A DNA stretch of 64,000 nt from Robbsia sp. KACC 23696 (lineage in GTDB: Bacteria; Pseudomonadota; Gammaproteobacteria; Burkholderiales; Burkholderiaceae). Under the pieces are notes generated by a model. It saw nothing but the letters and a program-made list of their open reading frames with translations, did not search any database and had not been told where the DNA came from. Shown in pieces: positions 1,631-44,347 of the stretch. Where the stretch lies: positions 1,024,249 through 1,088,248 of the forward strand of contig NZ_CP156626.1 in NCBI RefSeq assembly GCF_039852015.1, written 5' to 3'. Each line of letters begins with the position of its first letter. Position 1 is the stretch's first letter. A program made the position numbers and the translations under genes.

Positions 1631-2310
1631 TGCATCACGAATTCGATTGGTCTTCGATTCCGGCGTCGTTCAATACGCTATGGCATGGCGCCATCGTGAC
1701 GTTCGAGATCACCGTGTGTGCCATTGTCATCGGCATCCTTTGGGGGACGGTTCTCGCGCTGCTGCGACTGTCGCCGGTGAAGCCCTTGGCGTGGTTCGCG
1801 ACGATCTACGTCACCTTGTTCCGCTCCATCCCGCTGCTGATGGTGCTGTTGTGGTTCTTCCTGTTGGTGCCGCAACTGTTGCAGTCGTTCTTCGGTCTGT
1901 CGCCGTCGGTCGATATCCGCTTCGTCTCGGCCTTGACCGCGTTCTCCTTGTTCGAGGCCGCGTATTATTCCGAGATTATCCGGGCCGGCGTGCAGAGCGT
2001 GGCGCGAGGACAGGTGCAGGCTTCTTCGGCGCTCGGGCTGACGTACACGCAATCGATGCGCTATGTGGTGTTGCCGCAAGCCTTCCGTGCGATGGTGCCG
2101 TTGTTGCTGACGCAGGGGATCGTGTTGTTCCAGGATACGTCGTTGGTGTACGTGATCGGCCTGGCCGATTTCTTCCGTACCTCCACCAATATTGGCGACC
2201 GCGACGGTACGATGGTCGAAATGGTATTGTTTGCTGGCGCATGCTACTTCGTGGTTTCGGTAATCGCGTCGACGCTCGTCAAACGGATGCAAAAAGGGGT
2301 GAGCAGATGA
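1627..2310 (+). CDS. gltK: Glutamate/aspartate ABC transporter permease
   Basis: 227-aa ORF with a 4-nt overlap on gltJ. His/Glu/Gln/Arg/opine family permease signature (…[28 protein letters not shown]…). Confidence 0.85.
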
Positions 2311-6418: not shown

Positions 6419-6852
<434 letters not shown>

Positions 6853-6861
6853 CTTTTTTCA

Positions 6862-31336: not shown

Positions 31337-31427
31337 GCGCGGCTTCGATGCTTGCATCATGGCTGTCCTGACGCGATCGCCTTGATCGCGACGGCAGGTA
31401 TCGTGCAGTAAGAAAAGGGGACGCGCA

Positions 31428-32579
31428 TCACGCCGGTTGTCGCAACGTCACCAGCCCGTTCAACACCTGATCCAAGCCACCGAACACGGTGATCTTGTCG
31501 ATGCGCTCCGCCACGCGCTCCAGTGTCTCCAGCTCTTTCATCCGCAACGCCACGGGATTGTCCTCCATCACCTTGGCGGTATTGAGCAGCGATCGCGTCG
31601 CCGCCGTTTCCTCTCGTCGACGAATGACATTGGCTTGCGCCGCCTTTTCCGCTTGCACCACCTGCGCCAGGATCACCTTCATGTCGCCGGGCAGGACGAT
31701 GTCCTTCACGCCGGCACTGTCCAGCGCCATGCCATGGTCCGACAGGTGCTCGGTCACGTGGGCCATCACACTGTCATCGATTGCCGATTTGTTTTCCAGC
31801 AACTCGTCGAGCGTGCGCGTGCCGACCGCTGCGCGCAAGCCGAATTGCAGCGCGCGATACAAATGTTCGGCGGGCTTTTGCAGCTGCATGAAGGCTTTGA
31901 GGACATCGGTATAGCGCCAGGTGGCCGACAGGTTCAAGCGCAAGCCGACTTTGTCTTTTGTCAAAATCTCCTGACCTGAGACGTCGAGCACCTGCATACG
32001 CAAATCGATCAGCTCGATCGCGATATGACGATTGAATTTCCAGTAGGCATGCGCGCCGGGCTGTAGTAACGGCTGGACCTTGCCGTCGATGATCAGGATG
32101 CCGACACTGGATTCCGGCACCTGCAGCGAGAGCACGCCGTCGAGGCCGATCACGCCGCGCTCGCGCATTTGCGTCTGGATCAGACGGGTCACCAGCGTCG
32201 GCGGCAATACGGCGGTTTCATCGATATCGATCACCTCGATCTTCACATCGATCAATCCTTTCCAATACAGGCGACGCGTGCCGGGCGCCAGCACCTCGAT
32301 CAGCACGCCGTTCTCGCTGCGCAGACCAACCTGCGTCTCGCCCAGATCCACCTGCACGAACTCGGCGGCGAGAACGTCGGGTTCGTGCGCCATCAGATAA
32401 GCACTCGCTTCGTGGGTGAATGCCGTTTGTGCCAAGCCGAAGATCTCGGCGTGAAGGCGATCAACCGCGCTGACAAGCCAATGCTTGCCAGGCTGCAGCA
32501 CGCCAGCGAAGTCGCCGTTGCGCAGCAAAATGCCGCGTTCGCTTTTCTTTACGACAACACGCTTGATCGTCACGGCCAT
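31428..32579 (-). CDS. SPFH/band-7 domain protein (flotillin/YqiK-like), no obvious N-terminal TM segment
   Basis: 383 aa. SPFH-like core followed by a coiled-coil-like E/A/Q-rich C-terminus (…AQVVQAEKAAQANVIRRREETAATR…). Confidence 0.6.
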   Translation of the reverse strand: MAVTIKRVVVKKSERGILLRNGDFAGVLQPGKHWLVSAVDRLHAEIFGLAQTAFTHEASAYLMAHEPDVLAAEFVQVDLGETQVGLRSENGVLIEVLAPGTRRLYWKGLIDVKIEVIDIDETAVLPPTLVTRLIQTQMRERGVIGLDGVLSLQVPESSVGILIIDGKVQPLLQPGAHAYWKFNRHIAIELIDLRMQVLDVSGQEILTKDKVGLRLNLSATWRYTDVLKAFMQLQKPAEHLYRALQFGLRAAVGTRTLDELLENKSAIDDSVMAHVTEHLSDHGMALDSAGVKDIVLPGDMKVILAQVVQAEKAAQANVIRRREETAATRSLLNTAKVMEDNPVALRMKELETLERVAERIDKITVFGGLDQVLNGLVTLRQPA

Positions 32580-32844
32580 GCGCTCCAGATGACTTCGGTG
32601 TGTTGCCCGGATTGGGCAATTCGTAAAAAGAAAGTGCCGTTACAGCAGTGGCGGCGGGCCTCGAAGGTCATGGTGTGGGGCATCCCGGCGCGCGTCGGTG
32701 TTTCGCTTTCGCTAAAAGACACCTCGGCTTGCCGCGGGCGAGCACCGGACGGTTTCAAGGCACGGGCCGACACCGCTGATGGGCCGCGTACTGCCCACTT
32801 TCGGCGAGGAGGTCTTGCGACCGGAGGTCAACGTCGACCTGCAT

Positions 32845-32913
32845 TTATCGGTACGGGAATCGAACCCGTTACACACGCATGAACGCCGCGCTACCCAATG
32901 CGCTACACCGATA
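32845..32913 (-). other. Degenerate tRNA-like element (acceptor stem, D-arm, perfect T-arm ACGGG-TTCGATT-CCCGT, but anticodon arm ~5 nt short; no CCA)
   Basis: Minus-strand sequence is TATCGGTGTAGCGCATTGGGTAGCGCGGCGTTCATGCGTGTGTAACGGGTTCGATTCCCGTACCGATAA. The 7-bp acceptor pairing TATCGGT/ACCGATA is present, but the element is 69 nt with no foldable anticodon stem. Confidence 0.4.
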
Positions 32914-32916
32914 AGG

Positions 32917-32968
32917 TGGCCGATCAGGAATCGAACCTGTCGCCATTGCTGGCGCTGCCACAGCGGCC
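32917..32968 (-). other. Truncated tRNA-like element (acceptor-like stem + GNRA hairpin + T-arm; 52 nt)
   Basis: Minus-strand sequence is GGCCGCTGTGGCAGCGCCAGCAATGGCGACAGGTTCGATTCCTGATCGGCCA(CC). It lies directly 5' of the first element. Confidence 0.35.
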
Positions 32969-33259
32969 TACCGACCGTTTTCCGCGAGCACGGCATGCGC
33001 CGACACAACAGGCGCGTCAGAGACGGGCCCGGCTATGGCGCACCGGCGAGGCGGGGGTAAGCCCAAACCCCGGACCTGTGCGTGCTTGCCTTGAACGGTG
33101 GATTTTCGATGCTAGCGTGAGGCGCCGCATCAACCTTCAACAATCCTGGGGACGTGGCGAAGCGGGAGAGGGTGGTGCGTCGGCGCGCCGTGCTCTTGCT
33201 TATATCGTCGGCGCGCCGAGGAGGTGCGGTGGGGGAGATGGACGATGCGCGCGTGACGC

Positions 33260-33667
33260 TCAGTCTTTCGCGCTTTGACCGCCGACCTTCTTCTGAATCA
33301 ATTCGATTTTATAGCCGTCCGGATCTTCGACGAAGGCGATGACCGTGGTGCCGTGCTTCATCGGACCGGCTTCACGGGAAACCTTGCCGCCACGTGCGCG
33401 CACATCGTCGCAGGCTTGCGCGGCGTTTTCCACTTCCAGCGCGATATGGCCGTAGGCGGTGCCGAGTTCGTACTTCTCGGTGCCCCAGTTATAGGTCAGC
33501 TCAATAGCCGACTCTTCGGATTCGTCCCGGTAGCCGACGAACGCCAGCGTGAACTTGCCTTCCGGGTATTCATGCTGGCGCAGCAGCTTCATGCCGAGCA
33601 CGTTGGTGTAGAAGTCGATCGAGCGAGGCAGGTCGCCGACGCGCAGCATCGTGTGCAGGATTCTCAT
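33260..33667 (-). CDS. gloA: Lactoylglutathione lyase (glyoxalase I)
   Basis: [20 protein letters not shown]… and …[11 protein letters not shown]…. 135 aa, typical Ni/Zn GloA. Confidence 0.9.
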
Positions 33668-34154
33668 AATGTTCTCGGGGATAGATGTTGTAGCTGCAAG
33701 GGCAGCATTTTACCAATACGGGCCGCCTCCCGCCCGCAGGCGGTAGAAACCCCGGGTTCGCGCCTGCTTCAGGCGTAATGTAAAGAAAGACTCTGGTGCT
33801 GCCGAGCGCGTGCGCGAGGCGATAGCGGAGGCGAATTTGGCTGCTTGCCACTAGGATTCGATCGGCCCAAACGCATGCCGGATTGATTTAAACACTTGTT
33901 TTAAGTGTCCAATCGAAATCGGACGCATCGGGAAAATGCTGTGTCGCTTTCCTGCACAGGCACCAGAATTTACTTTCAACGTATTACTTATGTATTACAC
34001 TCGCTTCGCATTGAGATGTAGCACATTGTTACATTTGATCGCGGCGCCCTCCGCCGCGATCGATCGACGTCAGAATTTCTGCTGTTTCAAACTGCTCGCG
34101 CTTTACCTGAAAGCCGGGCGGAATGCATGACATCATTGCGTGTGAGTAGATAGT
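33668..34154. other. AT-rich (low-GC relative to flanks) intergenic tract preceding the heptosyltransferase gene; contains palindromes (ACACTT-gttt-AAGTGT; GATCGCGGCG-ccctc-CGCCGCGATC at 34037-34061)
   Basis: Visible compositional shift (runs of A/T, TTTAAACACTTGTTTTAAGTGTCC, TTACTTATGTATTACAC). A 10-bp perfect inverted repeat lies ~95 nt upstream of the ATG at 34155. Confidence 0.5.
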
Positions 34155-35642
34155 ATGACTAAGCAGTACCGTGATTTGGCAGACGTTGCAGCAAAGACTG
34201 ACGCTGGCTTGGAGGGAGGCGTCGACGCGCGTTTCGCTGGCGCCAGCCAATCGCCTGAGCAGCGCAACGAGCCTGCATCGGCACCGCGTGTAGCGGATGC
34301 ATCGACATCGCCTGCCGTGAGGTCCGCCGTTTCATCGCTTTTCGACGCTGCGGCCAGCGCGGCGCAGACGCAAGCACACGCCGATGCGACACATATCGGC
34401 CTGCCGCGGTCGACGGAAGCGCCCATTGCGCTCGCGTCCACCGCACCCGTCGCAGCGCTTATTCCGTCGGAAAAGAAAGCTTTTGTCGAAGCGCCGGCGG
34501 TGCCGACCCAGCAAGGGGCGGCCAATATCCGCTTCGATTTCAACGACGGCTGCCGTGTGGTTTTGCCTCAGGGGGATTGGCACGTCACGTTGCGCGATAG
34601 GGAAACCGACAACACGCTTTTTGAGACACGCCTGAGCGCCGGCAGCATTGCGAGCAGCAAGAAGTACTACGTGCCATTCTCGATCGACGTCTCTTCGGGC
34701 GGAAATCCGGTCTTCCATCACGATTTCGATCCAAAAGGAAAGCGCGTCCTCATTCAGTTTCCGGTGGGAACGCTCGGCGACCTGGTGGGTTGGTTCCCCT
34801 ATGCGGCGAAGTTTCAGGCGCAACACGGCTGCGAGCTGACGTGTTCGATGTCCGAGCTTATCAGTCCCTTGTTCGCCGCTTGTTATCCGCATATCCAATT
34901 CATCACGCCGGACAAGATCGACGCGTCCTCGTATTACGCGACCTACCGTATCGGGCTGTTCTTCGATGACAGCGCGAACATTCATCAGCCGTGCGACTTT
35001 CGCCTGGTAGGGCTGCACCGCACGGCCGGCTATATTCTGGGCGTCGATCCAGAGGAGTCGCGGCCGCAGGTATCGCTTGCGGACGAGACTCGGCCGATCG
35101 CGGAAAAATACGTCTGTATCGCGACGCAGAGTTCCACGCAGTCGAAGTATTGGAACCACCCGAGCGGCTGGCGTGAAGTCATTGCGTTCTTGAAGTCGAA
35201 TGGCTATCGCGTCATTTGCATCGATCAAAAGCCGACGCATGGCCACGGTCTGGTTTGGAACCATATCCCGCACGGATGCGAGGACGAAACCGGCGACAGA
35301 CCGCTGATGGAGCGCGCACGCTGGCTGAAGCACGCCGATTTCTTTATCGGCCTGTCCAGTGGACTGACGTGGCTTGCCTGGGCGATGCAGACGCCGGTCG
35401 TGATGATCAGTGGATTTACCCATCCATCGAACGAATTCGCGACGCCGCATCGTGTGATCAATTATCACACCTGCAATAGCTGTTGGAACGATCCGCATGT
35501 GCGGTTCGACCATAAGGACTTTCTCTGGTGTCCGCGTCATGCGAATACACCGCGCCAGTTCGAATGCACGCGGCTTATCACGCCGCAGCAGGTGAAATCC
35601 ACCATCTCCCGCATCCCCATCTTCGTCGCACAGCCGCAATAA
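34155..35642 (+). CDS. BAHT/TibC/AAH-family autotransporter-adhesin heptosyltransferase with ~80-aa Ala/Ser/Pro-rich N-terminal extension
   Basis: 495 aa. The C-terminal region HTCNSCWNDPHVRFDHKDFLWCPRHANTPRQFEC has Cys spacing C-x2-C-x15-C-x11-C. This is identical to the TibC iron-finger Cys358/361/377/389 spacing. The gene sits immediately upstream of an AIDA/TibA-like autotransporter. Third-codon positions are lower in G/C than in core genes. Confidence 0.75.
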   Translation: MTKQYRDLADVAAKTDAGLEGGVDARFAGASQSPEQRNEPASAPRVADASTSPAVRSAVSSLFDAAASAAQTQAHADATHIGLPRSTEAPIALASTAPVAALIPSEKKAFVEAPAVPTQQGAANIRFDFNDGCRVVLPQGDWHVTLRDRETDNTLFETRLSAGSIASSKKYYVPFSIDVSSGGNPVFHHDFDPKGKRVLIQFPVGTLGDLVGWFPYAAKFQAQHGCELTCSMSELISPLFAACYPHIQFITPDKIDASSYYATYRIGLFFDDSANIHQPCDFRLVGLHRTAGYILGVDPEESRPQVSLADETRPIAEKYVCIATQSSTQSKYWNHPSGWREVIAFLKSNGYRVICIDQKPTHGHGLVWNHIPHGCEDETGDRPLMERARWLKHADFFIGLSSGLTWLAWAMQTPVVMISGFTHPSNEFATPHRVINYHTCNSCWNDPHVRFDHKDFLWCPRHANTPRQFECTRLITPQQVKSTISRIPIFVAQPQ

Positions 35643-35649
35643 ATGACTC

Positions 35650-35673
35650 GATGGGGCGCCCATGCGCCCCATC
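35650..35673 (+). repeat. Perfect 10-bp inverted repeat GATGGGGCGC-ccat-GCGCCCCATC between heptosyltransferase and autotransporter genes
   Basis: Seen directly. No adjacent U-tract, so it is not a canonical terminator. Confidence 0.6.
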
Positions 35674-35713
35674 GAGAAAATTCGACAAGCAACACTGATA
35701 AGCATTCCTTAAT

Positions 35714-38700
35714 ATGAAGCCCCTTTCGTATCGCCGCAGGTATTGTGTCCACACCTTCGGCCGGCGGCCGCAACGCCTTGCCGGGCTGACCTACGCGATG
35801 CTGGCGGGCGCCGGACTGATCAGCGTGTTCTTTGCGCCCGAGCACGCCTATGCGGATACGGTCGCGGCGGGACAGACGTCCTCCGGCGGTTCGGTATCCA
35901 ATGGCAATCCGCAGTTGGTGTACGGCACCGCAAACAACTACTCGGTGTATTCGTCCGCGACGCAGACGGTTTTCGCCGGTGGCGTCACCAGCGGAACGAC
36001 TGTCTACGGCACGTCGGGGACGCAGGTCGTATCCAGTGGTGGTGTGGCGAACAGCACCACCGTCAACGGCTATTTCGCAAATCAAACCGTATCGAGCGGT
36101 GGCGTGGCGAACAGCACGACCGTCCAATACGGTAGCCAGTCGGTTCTGGCTGGCGGTCATGCCACCGGCACCACGATCGGCAATGCCGGAAGCCAGACGG
36201 TCGCAGCGGGCGGCACGGCCCAGGACACCGCGGTGAGTAGCGGTGGGCGGCTGTATGTCAGTTCAGGAGGTGTTGCAAACAACGTCAATCAGAGCAGTGG
36301 CGGCGCGCTGATCACCAATACGTCGGCGACGGTCAATGGCAGCTCGGTCAATGGAACGTTCACGATCTCGGGCAATCATGCGAGCAATGTACTCGTCGAG
36401 AACGGCGGCTATCTGACGGTGCTCAACGGCGGCTCGGCAGATGCGACGACCATCGGTCGTTCGGGAACGCTGGAAGTGTCGTCAGGCGGCTCGGCAACGA
36501 ACGTCGATCAGTTGGCCGGCGGGGCATTGGTGACGGACACGTCGACAAGTGTGAACGGGTCGAGTACGGCTAGCGGCAGTTTCTCGATCAGCAACAATAC
36601 CGCGACGAATGTCGTCGTCGATGCAGCGGGTCGACTGACCGTCCTGAGCGGCGGCTCGGCGAACGAAACCAGCGTGCTGAGTGGTGGCACCCTGGTGGTC
36701 GGCTCCGGGGGCACCGCCAACGACGTCGATCAACGGAGCGGCGGCGCGTTGCAGACCACGACCTACAACACGGTCATCAGTGGCACGAATCGCAACGGAA
36801 CGTTTTCGATCAGCGCCGGCTCGGCCAGCAATGTCGTCCTCGAAAACGGTGGCTATCTCGATACCGTCGGGGCGACCTCGTCGTTCGATACGACAGTCGG
36901 TTCCGGCGGCTACCAAACGGTCGAGAGCGGTGGCGCGGCCAGCAACACGACAGTGCAGGCCTACGGTCGCCTGACCGTGGCCGCTGGCGGTAGCGCGACA
37001 ATGATATCGCGAGACAACAACGGATCGATCGTCACGAATACGTCGGCCACGCTCGACGGCACCAACACCGCCGACGGGACGGATTTTTCAATTGCATCGA
37101 ATGCCGCGTCCGGTCTCGAACTGGAGTACTACGGCTCGCTGACCGTGTCGAGCGGCGGCACGGCGACGTCGACGACGATCGCGTCTTCTTCGACGATGCT
37201 GGTGAACAGCGGCGGCAGTGCGACATCGACAACGATCAATGGCACCGGTTCGGCCACGATCGCCGCCGGCGGTTCGGCTTCGGCGGTGGCGCTCAACTCG
37301 GGCGGACGCTTGTACGTGTCCGGTGGGGCGACAGCGCTGGAGGTGACGCGGGCCGATGGCGGCGCGCTGATTACCAATACCTCGGCGACATTGGCAGGAC
37401 ACAATGTCTCGGACGATACGGACTTCGCTATCAGCGGTAACGTTGCGACCAATGTCGTTATCGAAAACAGTGGTTCGCTGATCGTCAATAGTGGTGGCGT
37501 CACCAGCAACACGATCGTACGAAACGGCGGCACGGTGACGGTGGCCGTTGGTGGCGTCACGCACGCAACGACGATAAGCGGCGGCGTCACGTCCAACTTC
37601 GGTGCCGAGTACGATACTGTCGTCTCCGGCGGGTCCGACGTGACGGTTGGGACCGCGTCCGGCACACTCGTCGCCGGGGGCACGCAGTATGTCAGTGGCA
37701 CCGCGACGGCGACCACGATCACCGGTGGCTCGCAATACATTTCCGCAATGGGAACGGCGTCTGGCACGACCCTGACGTCGGGATCCCAGTATGTGTATGG
37801 CGCCGCGACGAATACGACGGTCAACGGCGGACAGCAAAGCGTCGGCAGCGGCGGTCGCGCGACGTCGACGACCGTATCGGCCCACGGTACGCAAACGGTC
37901 GCATCGGCAGGGTCGGCTAGCTCGACCACCGTCGATAGCGGCGGCATGCTCAATTTGGCGGCCGGCGGCACGGCAACCACGCTGGTCGTCAGCAGCGGCG
38001 GGGCCTTGATCACGAACACCTCGGCGACGATGACGGGGACGAATGCCGACGGGCAGGCAATGTCGATCGCCGGCGTATCGGCAACCAACCTGATCCTGGA
38101 AAACGGTGGCGCGCTGTCGGTGCTGTCGGGCGGCCAATCGACTGCAACGATCGTTCGCTCCGGCGGCACTGAAACGGTGGCCAGCAGCGCAACGGCGCAC
38201 GGCACCACGGTCAGCAGCGGTGGCACGCAATCGGTCAACGGCGGTGTCGCCAGCGCGACGACGGTCAGCAGTGGCGGCACGCAGACGCTCAACTATGGTT
38301 CGTCGATTGCGACCGTGCTGGACGGCGGTTCGCAGGCACTGAATGGCGGCACGGCCACGAATACCACGGTCAATGCGGGCGGCGTGCAGACCGTTGCCGG
38401 CGGTATCGCGTCGGGCACGACGGTGAATGCCGATGGTAGGCAGACGATTACCGCAGGCTCGGCCATCGGTGCGGTCATCGAAGACGGCGGCCAGCAAGTG
38501 CAAAACGGCGGCACGACGATCGGCACGACTGTCTCCAGCGGCGGCGCGGTCACCGTGAATGCGGGGACGGCGTCGGGGACCGCGCTGCTGGAGGGCGCGA
38601 CGATGTCGATCAACGGCGGTCAATCGGTCGGTACCACGGTGAATGCCGGTGCCGAGCAGACAGTGATCAGTGGCTCTGCATCGTCGACCACCGTGCTGTC

Positions 38701-41700
38701 GGGCGGGCTGTTGACAGTGTCCGGCGGCACTGCCGTACAAGCGGTGCTATCGGGTGGCACGGCGAATATCGGCAGCGGCGGAAAGGCGTCCGGAACGACG
38801 ATCCGCGCGGGCGGCGTTCAAACCGTTGCCAGCGGCGGCCTGGCTTCCGGCTCGGTCGTTTCCTCCGGTGGCGTGCAGAGCCTGGAGGACGGCGCGACTG
38901 CCTCCGGCACGGTCATCGCGTCCGCTGGACAGGAAGTCGTGTCGTCCGGTGCATCCTCTTATAACGGCACCGTGCAAAGTGGCGGTTTGCAAGACGTCTA
39001 CGGCGTGACGAGCGGCATGCTGATCGCCGGTGGGTCGCAGCACCTCTATGACGGTGCAAGTGCCATTTCGGGGTCCGTGACTGCCGGAACGCAGTATGTC
39101 GACGACGGCGCGGTGGTATCGGGCACCGTCATCTCGGGGACGGGCGTGCAGTCCGTCATGAGCGGCGGACAGGCAAACGGCGTGACGGTCGGCGGGGGTT
39201 CGCAAATCGTGGCGAGCGGGGCAAGCGCCGATGCCACGACCATCACGGCGGGCGGTTTGCAAACGGTGGCGGGATCCGCGACGAACGCCGTCGTCAGCAG
39301 CGGCGGCACTCAGACTGTCAGCGGTGGTGCGGTATCGGGAACCACGGTCGCCGGCGGCACGCAGATCGTCTCCTCGGGTGGCACGGCGACGTTGACGACA
39401 CTGACCGGCGGCAACCAGATCATCGGTGCAGGCGGTTCCGTCACCTCGACGACATTGACTGGCGCGACGCAAACGATCACGTCCGGGGGCGTTGCCACCA
39501 GTACGATGGTGAACGCCGGCGCGACGCAGAACGTCTCAGCCGGTGGTGTGGTGAGCAATACGACCGTGGCAAGCGGCGGCATACAGAATGTGCTGAGCAA
39601 CGGTGTGGCGTCGGCCACCACGGTGGGCAATGGCGGCACGCAAAACGTCGCGTCTGGTGGTACGGCATCGGAAGTTCATGTGCAAAGCGGGGGCCTGCAG
39701 ACGATCACCGACGGATCGATCGTCACGGACATCACCGTCGAATCGGGCGGTACCCAAGCGGTGCTGACGGGTGGCACCGCGAGCGGTACCGCGGTGAGCA
39801 GCGGCGGAACACAGACTGTCAGCTCGGGCGGCACGATCAACACGGCCGTCAGCGCGGGTGGGACGCAAACGGTGGCGGACGGCGGCGTCAGCACCAGTGC
39901 GACGGTCAACGGTACGCAGACGGTGAGCGGGACCGGCGTCGTCTCGGGATCGCAAGTGTCGAGCGGCGGCAGCGTCATCGCCTCGTCCGGTGGCGTGGCG
40001 ACCGGCACTGTCGTCAATAGCGGCGGGACCTTGTCGGTGCTAGGCGGTGGTACATCGTATGCGACGATCGTCAACAGTGGCGGCCTCGAGTATGTCGACG
40101 GCGTGATCGAAGGCTATGCCTACGGCACCACGGTCAATAGCGGCGGCGTCCAGGAAGTCGCGTTCGGCGGTTATGCGAGCGGTACCACGGTGCACAGTGG
40201 CGGGGTACAAACGGTCGATTCGGCCGGCTCGGCCGTGACGACCTTGCTCGATGGCGGCGCGCAGATCGTGTCGTCCGGCGGCTATGCCAGCGCTACGACA
40301 TTGCAGGCCAATGCGACGCAGACGATTCAAGCAGGGGGCTATGCGACCGACAGCATCGTGGGCTCCGGAACGCTCATCGTCTATGGCACGGCCGATGCGA
40401 TCACGACGGCGAACGGTGCAACCATTACCGGGACCGGCGTCGTCGATTCGGCTTTGACGATGAACAGCGGTAGCACGCTCGTGGCGAATACGATCGGCAG
40501 CGGTTTGACGGTGCAAGGCGATCTGACGCTGGCGTCCGGCTCGACCTATGCCGTGTCGAGTAATGCGCAAAGCCAGAGTGGCGTCACCCAGGTGTTGGGC
40601 AATGTGACGCTCGGAAGCGGTGCCACGCTTGCCATTACCGCGCTGTCGGGCGTCTATACCGCCGGCCTCACCTATACGGTGCTGACCTATACCGGAACGG
40701 AGACGGGGACGTTCGGTACCGTGACGTACAACCTCGCCTATCTCGATCCGATCGTGAGTTATTCGGGTGGGACGATCTCGTACACGCTGAAGGAAGTCGC
40801 CGATTTTGCGCGTCCGGCGGTACGCACGAATCAGGCGGCGTTCGGTAACGCGTTGACGCTGGCTTATCGCAGCAACCGTCTCGATCCGATCGCGCTGCAG
40901 TTGCTGCCGATGACAAACGATCAGGCGCGAGCCGCGTTGACGTCGCTCTCCGGTGACGAAGCACTGGCTTTCACGCAGATGGCCGAACGCCGGATGAACA
41001 GTGCGCAGTACGCCGTGTCGGATCGCCTGTCTCTGGTCGCGCCGGCCGCGCAGCGTAGCGGTGACAGCGGCGCGGTGCCGACGTCGCGTGATGCGTGGGC
41101 AAGCTTCAGCCATGACAGCACGCGGGCCGGGGGCAGCGACACCAGCGGGACGGGAAGCTATATCGATCGGACGTTCGCCTTGTCATTCGGGCATGACCGC
41201 CAAGTCTCGGAAAACCTGCGCGCAGGGGCCGGTATCAGTGCGAACGATGACACGGTCAGCTATGGCGATCGCAGCAGTAATGCGCGTCAGGACGGCGCGC
41301 AGCTGATGCTTTACGGCGTGTACACGCCGTCGGCGACGCCATTCTTCATCAAGGGCGTTGCAAGCGTGGGTTGGTGGGAGAACACGCTCACGCGTAATCC
41401 GACGGTCGGATCGTTGACGGGGCGTACGCGTGGTTCCTTCGACACGACCGGTGAAGCGTTGTACCTGGAAGCGGGAATGACCGTGCCGACCGCGTTCGGT
41501 ACCGTGCAGCCCTATGCGGGCGTGAGCGGCGGCCGTTACCAGCAACAGGGTTTCGCCGAATCGACCAGCGCGGGGAGCAGTGTGATGGATCTGCGCTATA
41601 ACGGCACCCATACCACTGCCATGTCGACGTTGCTCGGTGTTCGCTACGCGCATTCGGGCATCACGTTGGGCCACAGCGCGACGTCATGGCAAGCCGACGC

Positions 41701-41938
41701 CGGCTGGGTACATCGCTTTGGCGCGCAAGCGAACGCCTTGACTGCCGCCTTGGTCGAAGCACCCGCGTTTGGTTATCGCATCGAGGGGACGAAGATGGAT
41801 AGCGATCAGATGCGCTTGATGCTGGGCGGTACGGTGTCCTTGACCAAGTCCGCGTCCGTGACGTTGAAGGCCGGCACGCAGATCGGAGCGCATACCCATG
41901 CGTACGGTGTGAGCGGCGGCGTGAAGTGGCAGTGGTAG
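35714..41938 (+). CDS. Giant AIDA-I/TibA-like (self-associating) autotransporter adhesin: extended signal peptide, ~1650-aa passenger of imperfect 19-residue repeats, C-terminal beta-barrel translocator
   Basis: 2074 aa. The N-terminus MKPLSYRRRY…LISVFFAPEHAYA is an ESPR-like long signal peptide. The passenger is dominated by repeats such as SSGGVANSTTVNGYFANQTV and SGGTATSTTIASSSTMLVN. The C-terminal ~300 aa has alternating amphipathic beta-strands and ends …GVSGGVKWQW, an aromatic terminal residue typical of the autotransporter beta-domain. Confidence 0.85.
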   Translation: MKPLSYRRRYCVHTFGRRPQRLAGLTYAMLAGAGLISVFFAPEHAYADTVAAGQTSSGGSVSNGNPQLVYGTANNYSVYSSATQTVFAGGVTSGTTVYGTSGTQVVSSGGVANSTTVNGYFANQTVSSGGVANSTTVQYGSQSVLAGGHATGTTIGNAGSQTVAAGGTAQDTAVSSGGRLYVSSGGVANNVNQSSGGALITNTSATVNGSSVNGTFTISGNHASNVLVENGGYLTVLNGGSADATTIGRSGTLEVSSGGSATNVDQLAGGALVTDTSTSVNGSSTASGSFSISNNTATNVVVDAAGRLTVLSGGSANETSVLSGGTLVVGSGGTANDVDQRSGGALQTTTYNTVISGTNRNGTFSISAGSASNVVLENGGYLDTVGATSSFDTTVGSGGYQTVESGGAASNTTVQAYGRLTVAAGGSATMISRDNNGSIVTNTSATLDGTNTADGTDFSIASNAASGLELEYYGSLTVSSGGTATSTTIASSSTMLVNSGGSATSTTINGTGSATIAAGGSASAVALNSGGRLYVSGGATALEVTRADGGALITNTSATLAGHNVSDDTDFAISGNVATNVVIENSGSLIVNSGGVTSNTIVRNGGTVTVAVGGVTHATTISGGVTSNFGAEYDTVVSGGSDVTVGTASGTLVAGGTQYVSGTATATTITGGSQYISAMGTASGTTLTSGSQYVYGAATNTTVNGGQQSVGSGGRATSTTVSAHGTQTVASAGSASSTTVDSGGMLNLAAGGTATTLVVSSGGALITNTSATMTGTNADGQAMSIAGVSATNLILENGGALSVLSGGQSTATIVRSGGTETVASSATAHGTTVSSGGTQSVNGGVASATTVSSGGTQTLNYGSSIATVLDGGSQALNGGTATNTTVNAGGVQTVAGGIASGTTVNADGRQTITAGSAIGAVIEDGGQQVQNGGTTIGTTVSSGGAVTVNAGTASGTALLEGATMSINGGQSVGTTVNAGAEQTVISGSASSTTVLSGGLLTVSGGTAVQAVLSGGTANIGSGGKASGTTIRAGGVQTVASGGLASGSVVSSGGVQSLEDGATASGTVIASAGQEVVSSGASSYNGTVQSGGLQDVYGVTSGMLIAGGSQHLYDGASAISGSVTAGTQYVDDGAVVSGTVISGTGVQSVMSGGQANGVTVGGGSQIVASGASADATTITAGGLQTVAGSATNAVVSSGGTQTVSGGAVSGTTVAGGTQIVSSGGTATLTTLTGGNQIIGAGGSVTSTTLTGATQTITSGGVATSTMVNAGATQNVSAGGVVSNTTVASGGIQNVLSNGVASATTVGNGGTQNVASGGTASEVHVQSGGLQTITDGSIVTDITVESGGTQAVLTGGTASGTAVSSGGTQTVSSGGTINTAVSAGGTQTVADGGVSTSATVNGTQTVSGTGVVSGSQVSSGGSVIASSGGVATGTVVNSGGTLSVLGGGTSYATIVNSGGLEYVDGVIEGYAYGTTVNSGGVQEVAFGGYASGTTVHSGGVQTVDSAGSAVTTLLDGGAQIVSSGGYASATTLQANATQTIQAGGYATDSIVGSGTLIVYGTADAITTANGATITGTGVVDSALTMNSGSTLVANTIGSGLTVQGDLTLASGSTYAVSSNAQSQSGVTQVLGNVTLGSGATLAITALSGVYTAGLTYTVLTYTGTETGTFGTVTYNLAYLDPIVSYSGGTISYTLKEVADFARPAVRTNQAAFGNALTLAYRSNRLDPIALQLLPMTNDQARAALTSLSGDEALAFTQMAERRMNSAQYAVSDRLSLVAPAAQRSGDSGAVPTSRDAWASFSHDSTRAGGSDTSGTGSYIDRTFALSFGHDRQVSENLRAGAGISANDDTVSYGDRSSNARQDGAQLMLYGVYTPSATPFFIKGVASVGWWENTLTRNPTVGSLTGRTRGSFDTTGEALYLEAGMTVPTAFGTVQPYAGVSGGRYQQQGFAESTSAGSSVMDLRYNGTHTTAMSTLLGVRYAHSGITLGHSATSWQADAGWVHRFGAQANALTAALVEAPAFGYRIEGTKMDSDQMRLMLGGTVSLTKSASVTLKAGTQIGAHTHAYGVSGGVKWQW
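35900..40500 (+). repeat. Tandem imperfect 57-nt (19-codon) coding repeats, many tens of units (~70-85), within the autotransporter passenger
   Basis: Periodic recurrence of (S/A)GG-x-A-x-x-T-x-V-x-x-GG-x-Q-x-V units in the translation. Generates numerous spurious long antisense ORFs. Confidence 0.8.
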
Positions 41939-42056
41939 TCGGGCCGGCTTCGGCGATAGTGATCCGTCGCCGAACGCGAGGTGCCGCAGGAAAATAGCGA
42001 GAGGGGCCCGGAGCGCGGATCGAAAGGCGCGCGATCCGGGTACTTCAAGCCATGTA

Positions 42057-42926
42057 TCACCAATGCGGCAGCCAATCCGCCGTCGGTCCGCGCAAGCGTG
42101 CGCGGCGTTCGCCGTAGTCGGGCATTTCCCGCGCGACGATGGCCCAGAAGCGATCGCTGTGGTTCATTTCGCGCAAATGCGCTAGTTCATGAACGACGAC
42201 GTAGTCGAGCAGCGTCAGCGGCGCATGCGCCAGGCGCCAATGCAGGCGAATCTGGCCGGTGCTCGAACAACTGCCCCATCGCGTTCTTGCCGACGACAGA
42301 CCGACGGCCGCATAGCGCACGCCCATCCGGGCGGCATAATGGTCCAGCCGCGCCGCGAATACGCGCCTGGCCTCACCCTGTAACCATCGAAACAGCGCCA
42401 GTCGCACCGCGGCTGGATCGGACGGGTCGCGCAACATGATCGTCAAGGTCCGCATCGTCGGTTGCGCCAGGACTTTGGCGCTGCCGCGACCCGCGCCGCT
42501 CGCCATGCCGATGATCCTGAGCTGATACGGCTCGCCGAACACCGGGAAGGCCATTCCGTCCTGCCATTGGATCGGGCCGGACGGCTCCGCTTCGAGTTTC
42601 GCCAGCCAGTTATCGAGCTTACTGACGATCCAGTGCTGCTTCGACGCGATGGCCTCGTCGAGCACGCTCAGAGTCAGCCGCAGCGGTGCCGTGACGGTCA
42701 GCCCTTCGCGATCGATGACGAAGCCCACCGTACGTCTCGCGGAGCGTTTCAGCGTGTAGTCGATGACGCGGTCACCCAAGCGAATCTGACGTCGCTGGGC
42801 CGCGGCGGGCGCATGCCCGCGTGGCTTGGTTGCGCTCGGCGTTTCGCGTCCGCCTGCATCGCCGGCACGACCGGTCGTGCCGCCGTTCGTGCCGTTTCCG
42901 CGGCGAAAGAGATCAAGGAGTCGCAT
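42057..42926 (-). CDS. ygjP: M48-family metallopeptidase / YgjP-like (DUF45) zinc-dependent hydrolase
   Basis: HEXXH as VVHELAHLRE near the C-terminus. Start taken at MRLLDLFRR (42926). The Arg-rich upstream extension in the track ORF is probably not translated. Confidence 0.65.
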   Translation of the reverse strand: MRLLDLFRRGNGTNGGTTGRAGDAGGRETPSATKPRGHAPAAAQRRQIRLGDRVIDYTLKRSARRTVGFVIDREGLTVTAPLRLTLSVLDEAIASKQHWIVSKLDNWLAKLEAEPSGPIQWQDGMAFPVFGEPYQLRIIGMASGAGRGSAKVLAQPTMRTLTIMLRDPSDPAAVRLALFRWLQGEARRVFAARLDHYAARMGVRYAAVGLSSARTRWGSCSSTGQIRLHWRLAHAPLTLLDYVVVHELAHLREMNHSDRFWAIVAREMPDYGERRARLRGPTADWLPHW

Positions 42927-43729: not shown

Positions 43730-44347
43730 TCAATCCACGTGATGCGCCAGAAAATCCAGCGCGAATTGCCGCAGGTCGTCATGGATGCGCGTACCCGGCG
43801 GCAGTGCATGGGTCGCGCTTTTCGTGTCGGCATCGGACAAGGTTTTCTCTCCCTTGCCGGTCTTGACCAGATGCGGTATGAAGCCTGCCGCGGCACCGCT
43901 TTGCAAGTCGCGCAACGCATCGCCGACCATCGGCACTTTGCTCGGGTCGTTGATGTCGTACCGCTCGGCAATCTCCGTCAGCATGCCCGGCAATGGCTTG
44001 CGGCACCCGCAGGCATCCATATTCGTATGCGGGCAGAAAAATACCGCTTCGATCCGCGCTCCGGCCGCAGCCGCGGCACGATGCATCTTTTCGTGGATGT
44101 CGTTGAGCATGGCGGTATCGAACAGGCCGCGGCCGATGCCGGACTGGTTTGTCGCGACGACTACCCGATAGCCCGCGCGGTTCAGCCGCGCGATGGCTTC
44201 AAGGCTGCCCGGAATCGGATGCCATTCATCCGGCGACTTGATGAAAGCGGCGGAGTCATGGTTGATGACGCCGTCGCGGTCGAGCACGACCAGCTTGCGG
44301 CCGTGCGCCGCGCCGCGCTGTCCGTCCTGATTGCCATATGCACCCAT
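43730..44347 (-). CDS. gmhB: D-glycero-beta-D-manno-heptose-1,7-bisphosphate 7-phosphatase
   Basis: HAD motifs I (…LDRDGVIN…) and III, plus the CxH…CxC zinc insert (…FFCPHTNMDACGCRKP…). Confidence 0.85.
   Translation of the reverse strand: MGAYGNQDGQRGAAHGRKLVVLDRDGVINHDSAAFIKSPDEWHPIPGSLEAIARLNRAGYRVVVATNQSGIGRGLFDTAMLNDIHEKMHRAAAAAGARIEAVFFCPHTNMDACGCRKPLPGMLTEIAERYDINDPSKVPMVGDALRDLQSGAAAGFIPHLVKTGKGEKTLSDADTKSATHALPPGTRIHDDLRQFALDFLAHHVD

Follow-up and report, generated by a model that had tools for sequence, protein, structure and literature searches.

A probable TibC/TibA- and AAH/AIDA-I-type glycosylated-adhesin cassette in an accessory insertion between ygjP and gloA of Robbsia sp. 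KACC 23696

The window analyzed here is a stretch of 64,000 nucleotides from the chromosome of Robbsia sp. KACC 23696. The host Robbsia is a plant-associated soil bacterium. Two adjacent open reading frames (ORFs) lie on the forward strand, 34155..35642 (495 aa) and 35714..41938 (2074 aa), both intact and free of frameshifts and internal stops, with the coordinates, lengths and order given in the initial annotation of the locus. They are bordered by core genes on the reverse strand that stand outside the system: gloA, encoding lactoylglutathione lyase, on the left (33260..33667; TIGR00068, 174.5 bits, cutoff 120) and a gene for a ygjP-like M48/SprT metallopeptidase on the right (42057..42926; PF01863, 193.5 bits). 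The product of the latter is 100% identical to Robbsia sp. KACC 23696 protein P0121.

The 495-aa protein matched the equivalog model TIGR04414 at 651.5 bits, for which the cutoff is 200 bits, as well as PF21129 TibC_1st (86.6 bits) and PF01075 (49.3 bits). Its alignment with crystallized TibC (PDB 4RAP) covers 376 aa (aa 109–487) with 57% identity and an E value of 6e-144, and these four results exclude a similarity restricted to the cysteine motif. [quoted passage not shown] The cysteine codons of the finger fall within 35472–35567 and specify C440, C443, C459 and C471, which have the C-x2-C-x15-C-x11-C spacing noted initially and occupy the alignment columns of the TibC iron ligands Cys-339, Cys-342, Cys-358 and Cys-370. 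D209, K331, R387 and W406 correspond to TibC Asp-110, Lys-230, Arg-286 and Trp-305. In TibC, these residues and the four iron-binding cysteines are functionally essential (PMC4358343); all of the equivalents are kept in the Robbsia enzyme. TibC Thr-226 is replaced by Ser (S327), and S401 stands at the position of TibC Pro-300. As first proposed, the ORF is identified by full-length homology as encoding a TibC/AAH-type autotransporter O-heptosyltransferase (BAHT).

The TibC alignment begins at aa 109, and the preceding aa 1–108 (34155..34478, +) form a low-complexity, Ala/Ser/Pro-rich extension with no counterpart in TibC. Extensions of this kind, variable, poorly conserved and 25–110 aa long, were found in all 10 of the Burkholderiaceae homologues aligned. 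Because frame-wise analysis of 34155..34478 found no GC3 enrichment in any frame and the sole alternative in-frame start is a GTG at codon 116, translation of the putative 108-aa extension is rated as likely, and the true start is uncertain.

The second ORF begins with a predicted Sec signal peptide (aa 1–47; 35714..35854, +), read from the translation, with a long basic n-region, a hydrophobic core and a putative cleavage site between AYA and D. The N-terminus, MKPLS[YF]RRRYCVHTFGRR..LAGLTY, is unusual and is kept in the closest cassette, found on metagenome contig L087 from an organism of ~52% GC. It is followed by a passenger (35891..40273, +) of ~76–79 imperfect strand-loop-strand rungs of 18–20 residues with the consensus VSSGGTASGTTVSSGG..., delineated by TIGR04415 (607 bits, 38 stretches), PF16168 AIDA (422 bits, 17 stretches) and periodicity; a self-built HMM gave 78–79 repeat matches. 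The 18–20-residue periodicity spans aa ~60 to 1520, with a lag-19 identity of 0.22 against a background of 0.12. The passenger is rich in Gly (19%), Thr (16%) and Ser (14%), and residues 48–1520 contain 215 Ser and 233 Thr. Comparison with the passenger structures of TibA, the AIDA-I family and Ag43 gave E values of 1e-34 to 1e-43. The passenger is predicted to form a right-handed beta-helix and to serve as the heptosylation substrate. The repeats are degenerate as protein, and TRF found no tandem array at the DNA level. The initial description of a hyper-repetitive passenger built on 19 residues holds structurally, but not as a recent duplication.

Beyond aa ~1520 the 19-residue periodicity is gone. 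The non-repetitive segment that separates the repeats from the PF03797 match (aa ~1521–1794; 40274..41095, +), comprising the C-terminal passenger, junction and linker, may act as an autochaperone or linker by analogy with AIDA-I-type architecture. The remainder of the ORF (41096..41938, +) encodes the autotransporter beta-barrel translocator domain (aa 1795–2052), a tail and the stop codon. A scan of the full-length protein missed this barrel; it was found, where the initial annotation expected it, when the C-terminal 399 aa were scanned alone (PF03797, 127.3 bits, E 1.2e-36, model positions 2–253 of 255). Its nearest relatives are just 37%–44% identical and belong to autotransporters of 700–930 aa from R. 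betulipollinis, Paraburkholderia and Pararobbsia. On this domain content, the ORF is classed as a type Va autotransporter.

The enzyme of such a pair might not glycosylate its partner. BimC, a BAHT-family member from the same bacterial family as Robbsia, has a four-Cys iron finger that in B. thailandensis reportedly binds the BimA transmembrane domain and leads to polar targeting (PMC11499645). Retention of the four cysteines would be consistent with a comparable role for the Robbsia protein, chiefly that of a targeting factor or chaperone that relies on the iron finger to place the autotransporter, for instance at a cell pole. However, the identity to TibC is well above the ~44% reported for BimC (PMC11499645), the TIGR04414 cutoff is exceeded threefold, and the catalytic base and sugar-binding residues are retained. 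Moreover, the partner is a classical type Va protein with TIGR04415 heptosylation-target repeats, not a trimeric BimA-type autotransporter. A mainly BimC-like function is very improbable, and targeting and glycosylating roles are not mutually exclusive.

The chromosomal position of the pair was compared with the syntenic site in three related Robbsia lineages. Two of them, L081 and R. betulipollinis, have nothing inserted between ygjP and gloA, and R. andropogonis has unrelated cargo there. Since the pair is absent from this site in all three, it is accessory and inserted; the initial annotation had likewise foreseen that it would not be universal among related genomes. On the left, synteny resumes at 33723 with R. 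andropogonis and at 33681 with L081; on the right it resumes with L081, L084 and L085 at 42056, the stop of ygjP. In L081 and L093, gloA adjoins ygjP directly. No repeat of at least 9 nt is common to the two insertion ends, and no bounding repeats, integrase, tRNA gene or other recognizable mobility signature was detected. The left neighbor is gloA and not, as first described, the SPFH gene, which belongs to a separate insertion beyond gloA (31343..33256). That insertion also contains the tRNA-like element (32846–32912; Rfam 34.4 bits, ARAGORN negative) and a second T-arm copy (32927–32940), so that of the flanking features initially assigned to the island the AT-rich tract stands and the tRNA-like elements do not. 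The lower GC3 ascribed to the pair is confirmed for the heptosyltransferase gene (0.70, z = −2.85, lowest among the 40 genes in the window) but not for the autotransporter gene (0.77, z = −0.34), in which codon usage is near host values; composition deviates modestly, and in the former gene alone. The initial annotation had named three observations that would speak against it, namely similarity limited to the cysteine motif, lack of a barrel domain, and universal presence with core-like codon usage, and none of the three was made.

The gene gmhB (43730..44347, −; NF006506, 236.6 bits, cutoff 178) does lie 1.8 kb from the island, as reported. Its reading as a local donor supply was rejected, since glyQ-glyS-gmhB-plsC-ygjP is core synteny, identical in relatives without the island, and the proximity is a coincidence.

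A 70%-identical BAHT lies at another site in the R. betulipollinis genome, so horizontal transfer and intragenomic relocation both fit the insertion. The pair would in the latter case derive from an ancestral Robbsia cluster of BAHT and autotransporters and have reached the ygjP-gloA site by an intragenomic move, without being foreign. The R. betulipollinis enzyme is accompanied by three AIDA-type autotransporters, one of which (927 aa) has the closest known translocator domain (43% identity). Yet Paraburkholderia and Trinickia BAHTs are equally or more similar (70%–72%), and in the ~52% GC organism represented by L087 the BAHT is 72% and the autotransporter N-terminus 55% identical, while core YgjP is just ~45%–49% identical between these groups. 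In addition, R. betulipollinis has its BAHT downstream of the autotransporters, and the low GC3 of the Robbsia BAHT gene sets it apart within the window. Vertical descent followed by relocation is considered unlikely.

The left end of the insertion (33724..34154, +) is a 431-bp non-coding region of 52% GC. It holds the AT-rich tract (~33876–34030), the lowest-GC 150-nt stretch in the entire window (39%–42%), and probably serves the cassette as promoter and regulatory region. The upstream regions of this cassette and that of L087 have the motif TGATTTAAAC..TTGTTT.AA in common. A scan of the upstream region for sigma-70-like promoters gave a sole match (34127–34156), not above shuffled sequences, and no obvious Shine-Dalgarno sequence precedes either gene. 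The 71-nt intergenic spacer contains a perfect 13-bp GC-rich stem-loop (35647..35676, +; −27.9 kcal/mol, z = −6.3 against shuffles), which could limit read-through into the autotransporter gene. It lacks a U-tract on the forward strand, a terminator scan flags the reverse strand only, and the L087, L089 and L090 cassettes lack a conserved counterpart of the hairpin. At the right end, a 117-nt GC-rich spacer (41939..42055, no strand assigned; fold −54 kcal/mol, z = −2.0) is convergent with ygjP.

These features might be read as those of silent or decaying cargo, an old insertion that is transcriptionally silenced or a non-functional relic with no present role. An AT-rich upstream region would be a typical target of xenogeneic silencers, the scans gave neither a significant promoter match nor an obvious Shine-Dalgarno sequence, the hairpin between the genes is strong, and the absence of mobility scars suggests that the insertion is not recent. 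Nevertheless, both ORFs are intact across 1.5 and 6.2 kb, although a repetitive ORF of 6.2 kb would be expected to decay fast without selection, the functional residues are all conserved, and the near-host GC3 and codon usage of the autotransporter gene suggest long residence under selection. A loss of function of this sort is quite improbable.

The preferred interpretation, held with a probability of roughly 0.8, is that the two genes form a glycosylated-adhesin cassette of the kind known from TibC/TibA and AAH/AIDA-I, carried by an 8.3-kb accessory insertion at the ygjP-gloA site. The analysis establishes directly that the genes are intact and accessory, to which families their products belong, how the domains are arranged, and that the residues for catalysis and metal binding are conserved. 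Enzyme activity, oligomeric state, glycosylation sites and adhesive function are predicted from homology to TibC and AAH. By this homology, the enzyme would fold as an iron-containing GT-B heptosyltransferase, probably assemble as a ring-shaped dodecamer, and bind the still-unsecreted passenger in the cytoplasm. The housekeeping LPS-core pathway would supply ADP-heptose, from which the enzyme would place heptose on numerous Ser residues within the 19-residue repeats. The enzyme is predicted to take ADP-L,D-heptose besides ADP-D,D-heptose, because the stereoselectivity position is occupied by Ser-401, matching Ser-294 of AAH, where TibC has Pro-300. The modified precursor would leave via Sec, its C-terminal beta-barrel would enter the outer membrane, and the beta-helix would be displayed at the surface; at ~4.8 Å per rung, the ~76–79 rungs would measure ~35 nm, ~2× the length of AIDA-I. 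There the passenger would most likely mediate adhesion, autoaggregation or biofilm formation.

Among known systems, TibC/TibA of enterotoxigenic E. coli H10407 (PDB 4RAP, 4RB4, 4Q1Q) has the same order of enzyme then autotransporter. TibC shares the N-terminal barrel, GT-B core, four-Cys iron finger and Asp/Lys/Arg/Trp set, and the TibA structure is matched by the Robbsia passenger at E 2e-43. Unlike TibC, the Robbsia enzyme has the 108-aa low-complexity N-terminus and Ser at the donor stereoselectivity position; its partner is 2074 aa long with a translocator domain unrelated at the orthologue level, and the genes are chromosomal, amid housekeeping genes of a plant-associated betaproteobacterium. 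AAH/AIDA-I of diffusely adhering E. coli shares the enzyme family, the 19-residue repeat type and PF16168, although the Robbsia passenger has more rungs. The partial match to NF033176 (544 bits, cutoff 1200) led to rejection of AIDA-I orthology. The passenger also shares its repeat class and beta-helix with the self-associating Antigen 43 (Ag43/Cah; structures, E 1e-36 to 1e-42), and its match to NF033177 again falls below the cutoff (472 bits, cutoff 1200). Ag43 is not known to have a heptosyltransferase of its own next to it, and its expression is phase-variable via Dam and OxyR. Because both orthologue cutoffs are far missed, the biological target is not transferable from AIDA-I or Ag43, nor are the autoproteolytic cleavage site and receptor specificity of AIDA-I.

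The initial view that such systems are characterized only in enterics makes the pair more novel than it is. In 2014 the BAHT family was defined to include several Burkholderia species and Laribacter (PMC4358343), and one of its members, BimC, has been studied in B. pseudomallei and B. thailandensis (PMC11499645). BimC is likewise a four-Cys iron-finger protein encoded beside an autotransporter in Burkholderiaceae, but BimA is of a different kind and serves actin-based motility, with BimC described as a polar-targeting factor (PMC11499645); in Robbsia the enzyme is far nearer to TibC and is paired with an AIDA-type repeat protein. Within the library of papers searched, none joined Paraburkholderia, Trinickia or Robbsia with the BAHT enzyme family. 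Enzyme followed by autotransporter is the family norm (PMC4358343), and this order also occurs, in unrelated contexts, in Trinickia terrae, Paraburkholderia sp. SOS3 and L087. The annotated but uncharacterized cassettes of Paraburkholderia, Trinickia and R. betulipollinis encode enzymes 70%–72% identical to that of Robbsia, with N-terminal extensions, and downstream or neighboring autotransporters of 927–1848 aa with TIGR04415 repeats; they occupy other chromosomal sites, and their translocator domains are not orthologues of the one described here (for the SOS3 partner, E 0.68). The 2074-aa Robbsia protein is the longest among the cassettes examined. Homologues of the enzyme number in the thousands, many of them in Paraburkholderia and Trinickia and already bearing the exact annotation, and BAHT genes were found on 213 plasmids. 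The Robbsia cassette is a clear but ordinary addition to a well-known, automatically annotated and widely mobile system.

The initial annotation placed both open reading frames exactly. The enzyme gene occupies 34155..35642 (+, 495 aa) and is followed on the same strand, after a spacer of 71 nt, by the autotransporter gene at 35714..41938 (+, 2074 aa). The product of the first is a BAHT heptosyltransferase: it matches positions 2-374 of the 374 in the NCBIfam model TIGR04414 (autotransporter strand-loop-strand O-heptosyltransferase, hepto_Aah_TibC) with 651.5 bits against an equivalog cutoff of 200. Residues 121-182 match the N-terminal flattened β-barrel domain TibC_1st (PF21129, 86.6 bits, cutoff 27), and residues 301-426 match the GT9/GT-B catalytic domain Glyco_transf_9 (PF01075, 49.3 bits, cutoff 22). 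When the PDB was searched with the enzyme, TibC was the sole match (4RAP, 4RB4; E ~1e-143), with residues 109-487 aligned to TibC residues 8-386; of the 376 positions mapped residue by residue, 57% are identical.

The iron ligands of TibC are Cys-339, 342, 358, and 370, its catalytic base is Asp-110, and the sugar is bound by Thr-226, Lys-230, Arg-286, and Trp-305 (PMC4358343). The four cysteines map to C440, C443, C459, and C471 of the enzyme, which are invariant across 11 aligned Burkholderiaceae sequences. The motif C-x2-C-x15-C-x11-C, first recognized by its spacing, is aligned with the ligands of the 1Fe-0S iron finger of TibC. The counterpart of Asp-110 is D209, and those of the sugar-binding residues are S327 (a conservative change from Thr to Ser), K331, R387, and W406. 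Because ligand and active-site residues of TibC map onto the enzyme, the cysteine spacing is homologous and not a chance resemblance. Judged from its sequence, the enzyme has all the defining features of a BAHT that can be read at this level. The N-terminal 108 residues of the predicted protein form a low-complexity extension that carries no GC3 coding signal. The annotated start is the ATG at 34155, the sole alternative being a GTG at codon 116, and extensions of a comparable kind are present in all aligned homologues.

The second gene encodes an AIDA-type autotransporter of type Va. Its product matches the strand-loop-strand repeat model TIGR04415 in 38 stretches (607 bits) and the Pfam AIDA repeat PF16168 in 17 (422 bits), and structures solved for the passengers of TibA, Ag43, and an adhesin of the AIDA-I family are matched with E values of 1e-34 to 1e-43. 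Autocorrelation of residue identity peaks at lags of 19 and 18, with a periodic zone spanning approximately residues 60-1520. A self-trained repeat HMM resolves 78-79 units with the consensus VSSGGTASGTTVSSGG, a number consistent with the TIGR04415 result, since 38 stretches were found with a model of 38 residues. Residues 48-1520 contain 215 serines and 233 threonines. The passenger is the longest among those examined. Its repeats are degenerate at the protein level, and Tandem Repeats Finder detected no tandem array of the passenger in the DNA, just one 1.9-copy array of 30 nt, which rules out a recent DNA-level expansion. Together these observations indicate an old β-helix.

The predicted C-terminal β-barrel was found when the last 399 residues were searched alone: PF03797 aligns as a near-complete model to residues 1795-2052 (127.3 bits, E 1.2e-36). 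The same domain is absent from the output of a Pfam scan of the whole 2074-residue protein. The precomputed Pfam annotation of homologous long autotransporters on two contigs with comparable cassettes (L089 and L090) also has no PF03797. As the full-length scan misses the domain and the annotation of these homologues is blank, repeat-rich autotransporters are probably under-counted by domain-based surveys. At the other end, as read by eye, a long basic n-region and a hydrophobic core precede an AYA|D site after residue 47. The N-terminus thus reads as a putative Sec signal. Unusual as it is, it is conserved in the closest cassette, on the metagenome contig L087. The protein falls short of the orthology cutoffs for AIDA-I (NF033176, 544 bits versus 1200) and Ag43 (NF033177, 472 bits versus 1200). 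It therefore has the architecture of an AIDA-type type Va autotransporter and is an orthologue of neither AIDA-I nor Ag43.

The surroundings of the pair are those of a core region. On the + strand, the gene order begins with lptD, surA, pdxA, and ksgA. An SPFH-domain gene (31428..32579, −) lies between ksgA and a tRNA-like relic, and gloA (33260..33667, −) is the left neighbor of the pair. To the right are ygjP, plsC, gmhB, glyS, and glyQ, all on the − strand. The ygjP product is 100% identical to its counterpart in Robbsia sp. KACC 23696, which assigns the window to the chromosome of this strain. The neighborhood of ygjP was compared in three related lineages. In the close relative L081, which has ~81% DNA identity to the window over the syntenic region and an 83% identical YgjP, ygjP is followed directly by gloA and then ksgA. 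In Robbsia betulipollinis Bb-Pol-6 (contig L093; YgjP 49% identical), the ygjP-gloA site is likewise empty, and the gap between the two genes in these lineages is 79-106 bp. In R. andropogonis (YgjP 75% identical), the site holds an unrelated cargo of 8.26 kb (L084 10847..19110, L085 10847..19111). Among the products of this cargo is a protein of 141 aa that has an AvrPtoB E3 ubiquitin-ligase domain and resembles a type III effector. Fragments of a DUF772 transposase and of a filamentous-haemagglutinin-like protein are also present, as are several large ORFs without a Pfam hit. R. andropogonis is a plant pathogen.

Because the syntenic site is empty or differently filled in all three relatives, the pair is accessory, and the proposal that it had been inserted into the chromosome holds. 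BLASTN places one break-point at the stop codon of ygjP (42056) and the other at 33681 or 33723, ~45-55 nt upstream of gloA, so the insert corresponds to 33724..42055, ~8.3 kb. No integrase or transposase genes were found within 33724..42055, and no repeats of ≥9 nt, direct or inverted, are common to the two ends of the island.

The evidence for an island that the initial annotation had cited is weak. The tRNA-like elements do not flank the pair; they are located in a separate insertion, and gloA stands between them and the island. A tRNA gene as the integration site is ruled out, as ARAGORN found no tRNA gene in the window and the one weak, degenerate Rfam relic lies elsewhere. The lower GC3 is confirmed for the enzyme gene (0.70, z = −2.85) but not for the autotransporter gene (0.77, z = −0.34), relative to a core mean of 0.778 ± 0.027; codon usage gives log-likelihood z-scores of −1.7 for the former and −1.9 for the latter. 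The gene gmhB is indeed nearby (NF006506, 236.6 bits, cutoff 178) but is not part of the cassette. It belongs to the conserved core synteny glyQS-gmhB-plsC-ygjP, which excludes it as a component of the system, and since genomes that lack the island have the identical block, the nearness of gmhB is uninformative about the cassette. The AT-rich tract is real: no 150-nt stretch of the whole window has a lower GC content than the one at ~33876-34030, which lies inside the insert. Situated just upstream of the enzyme gene, it is best read as a putative promoter or regulatory region.

The separate insertion, 31343..33256, is independent of the first and absent from all three Robbsia relatives, in which the gap between gloA and ksgA is merely ~120 bp. 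It comprises the SPFH/Band-7 gene (31428..32579, −, 383 aa) together with a non-coding stretch of 680 nt that holds the tRNA-like relics. The degenerate element at 32846-32912 (−) matches the Rfam tRNA model with 34.4 bits, has a shortened anticodon arm, and is negative in ARAGORN. A second T-arm-like copy is present at 32927-32940, 71 nt from the first. Elsewhere in the window, an ordinary RNase P class A RNA gene (6422..6853; RF00010, 295.6 bits) is unrelated to the cassette.

No significant promoter or Shine-Dalgarno matches were found for the genes of the cassette. A perfect 13-bp GC-rich stem-loop (35647..35676; −27.9 kcal/mol, z = −6.3) begins 5 nt past the stop codon of the enzyme gene and is followed on the coding strand by an A-run, not a U-run. 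It could act in attenuation, contribute to RNA stability, or terminate antisense transcription, and in its position between the two genes it might modulate read-through. Three other cassettes lack it, which rules it out as a conserved feature. The AT-rich motif TGATTTAAAC(N2-3)TTGTTT(T)AA is common to the upstream regions of the cassette in the window (33886..33912) and on L087 (~1900..1930), and is absent upstream of the enzymes of Trinickia and Paraburkholderia SOS3. The match could reflect an operator or be due to chance in AT-rich DNA. With this short motif shared with L087 and nothing shared with Trinickia or SOS3, the case for conserved upstream regulatory DNA across cassettes was too weak and was rejected.

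Homologues of the enzyme are abundant: the protein collection has >4,300 of them at E < 1e-20. Identity is 61-74% among the best 120, many of which come from Paraburkholderia and Trinickia and already bear the name autotransporter strand-loop-strand O-heptosyltransferase. Among the matches listed, the closest cassette is that of L087 (~52% GC), with a 72% identical enzyme, a 55% identical autotransporter N-terminus, and the same signal peptide. An enzyme gene followed by an autotransporter with TIGR04415 repeats is also found in Trinickia terrae (1198 aa) and Paraburkholderia sp. SOS3 (1848 aa), in unrelated chromosomal contexts and with non-orthologous translocator domains. BAHT genes are present on 213 plasmids in PLSDB, including 170 from E. 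coli as well as replicons of Paraburkholderia, Burkholderia, Pandoraea, and Caballeronia. The spread of homologues, the varied contexts, and the plasmid copies argue that the BAHT/autotransporter module is mobile and widespread.

The copy in KACC 23696 may have arrived from outside Robbsia or may have been relocated within the lineage. In R. betulipollinis, a 70% identical enzyme is encoded elsewhere in the genome, in a cluster with three autotransporters of this type, and the closest known translocator domain, in the 927-aa protein of that species, has just 43% identity. In the R. betulipollinis Bb-Pol-6 cluster (L092 5252..19093), the TIGR04415-repeat autotransporters are of 1517, 927, and 1267 aa. 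The single BAHT gene is at the downstream end, an order opposite to that of the canonical enzyme-first pair. As read from the gene content, this arrangement is one of a single enzyme with several predicted substrates.

The mechanism rated most likely is modeled on TibC and AAH (PMC4358343). By homology, an iron-containing, probably dodecameric enzyme would hyper-heptosylate serine residues of the passenger repeats in the cytoplasm, with ADP-heptose as the donor. Sec export and insertion of the β-barrel would follow, and the long glycosylated β-helix would finally be displayed on the surface, where it may have a role in adhesion or aggregation. At the position governing donor stereoselectivity (Ser-294 in AAH, Pro-300 in TibC), the enzyme has a serine, S401, as do 10 of the 11 aligned Burkholderiaceae sequences. 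With this AAH-like residue, the enzyme should also accept ADP-L,D-heptose, which is a directly testable biochemical prediction.

The presence of unrelated, effector-like cargo in R. andropogonis points to the ygjP-gloA site as a probable hot spot for cargo with roles in host interaction. Its states are an adhesin cassette in KACC 23696, AvrPtoB-type and other cargo in R. andropogonis, and nothing in two lineages. A more extended reading, which we consider unlikely, would have ygjP-gloA and the neighboring gloA-ksgA spacer form a scar-less hot spot at which host-interaction cargo is swapped in Robbsia. The ~35-nm β-helix, potentially heptosylated several-hundred-fold, would then serve as an adhesin for plant or fungal surfaces, its extreme length and AAH-like donor tolerance being adaptations outside the enteric paradigm. 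A site that is empty, adhesin-bearing, or effector-bearing in sister species is informative about the turnover of accessory genes in Robbsia. An intact enzyme-substrate pair, single-copy within the window, on the chromosome of a plant-associated member of the Burkholderiaceae would lend itself well to work on two questions: whether bacteria on plant or soil surfaces adhere or aggregate with the help of hyper-heptosylation, and how a probably dodecameric enzyme processes a substrate with ~2x the rungs of AIDA-I.

The view that such systems are characterized only in enterics needs qualification. "Several Burkholderia species" were listed among the BAHT hosts in 2014, when the order of enzyme and autotransporter genes was also noted (PMC4358343), and BimC is a studied protein of the BAHT family in B. 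pseudomallei and B. thailandensis (PMC11499645). It remains correct that the function of heptosylated adhesins of the AIDA, TibA, and Ag43 types has been studied almost only in enteric pathogens. In the library searched, no paper was found to connect Paraburkholderia, Robbsia, or Trinickia with enzymes of the TibC/AAH family, and a functional study of BAHT systems in these genera appears to be still lacking. The pair adds to an already known class, standard annotation pipelines name both genes correctly, and current understanding of the BAHT/autotransporter system is unchanged by it. Like other members of the BAHT family, the KACC 23696 pair has the enzyme gene ahead of the autotransporter gene. 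It is slightly unusual in the length of the passenger, with a rung count approximately twice that of AIDA-I, in a donor-selectivity residue like that of AAH, and in its location at ygjP-gloA, a variable cargo site in Robbsia.
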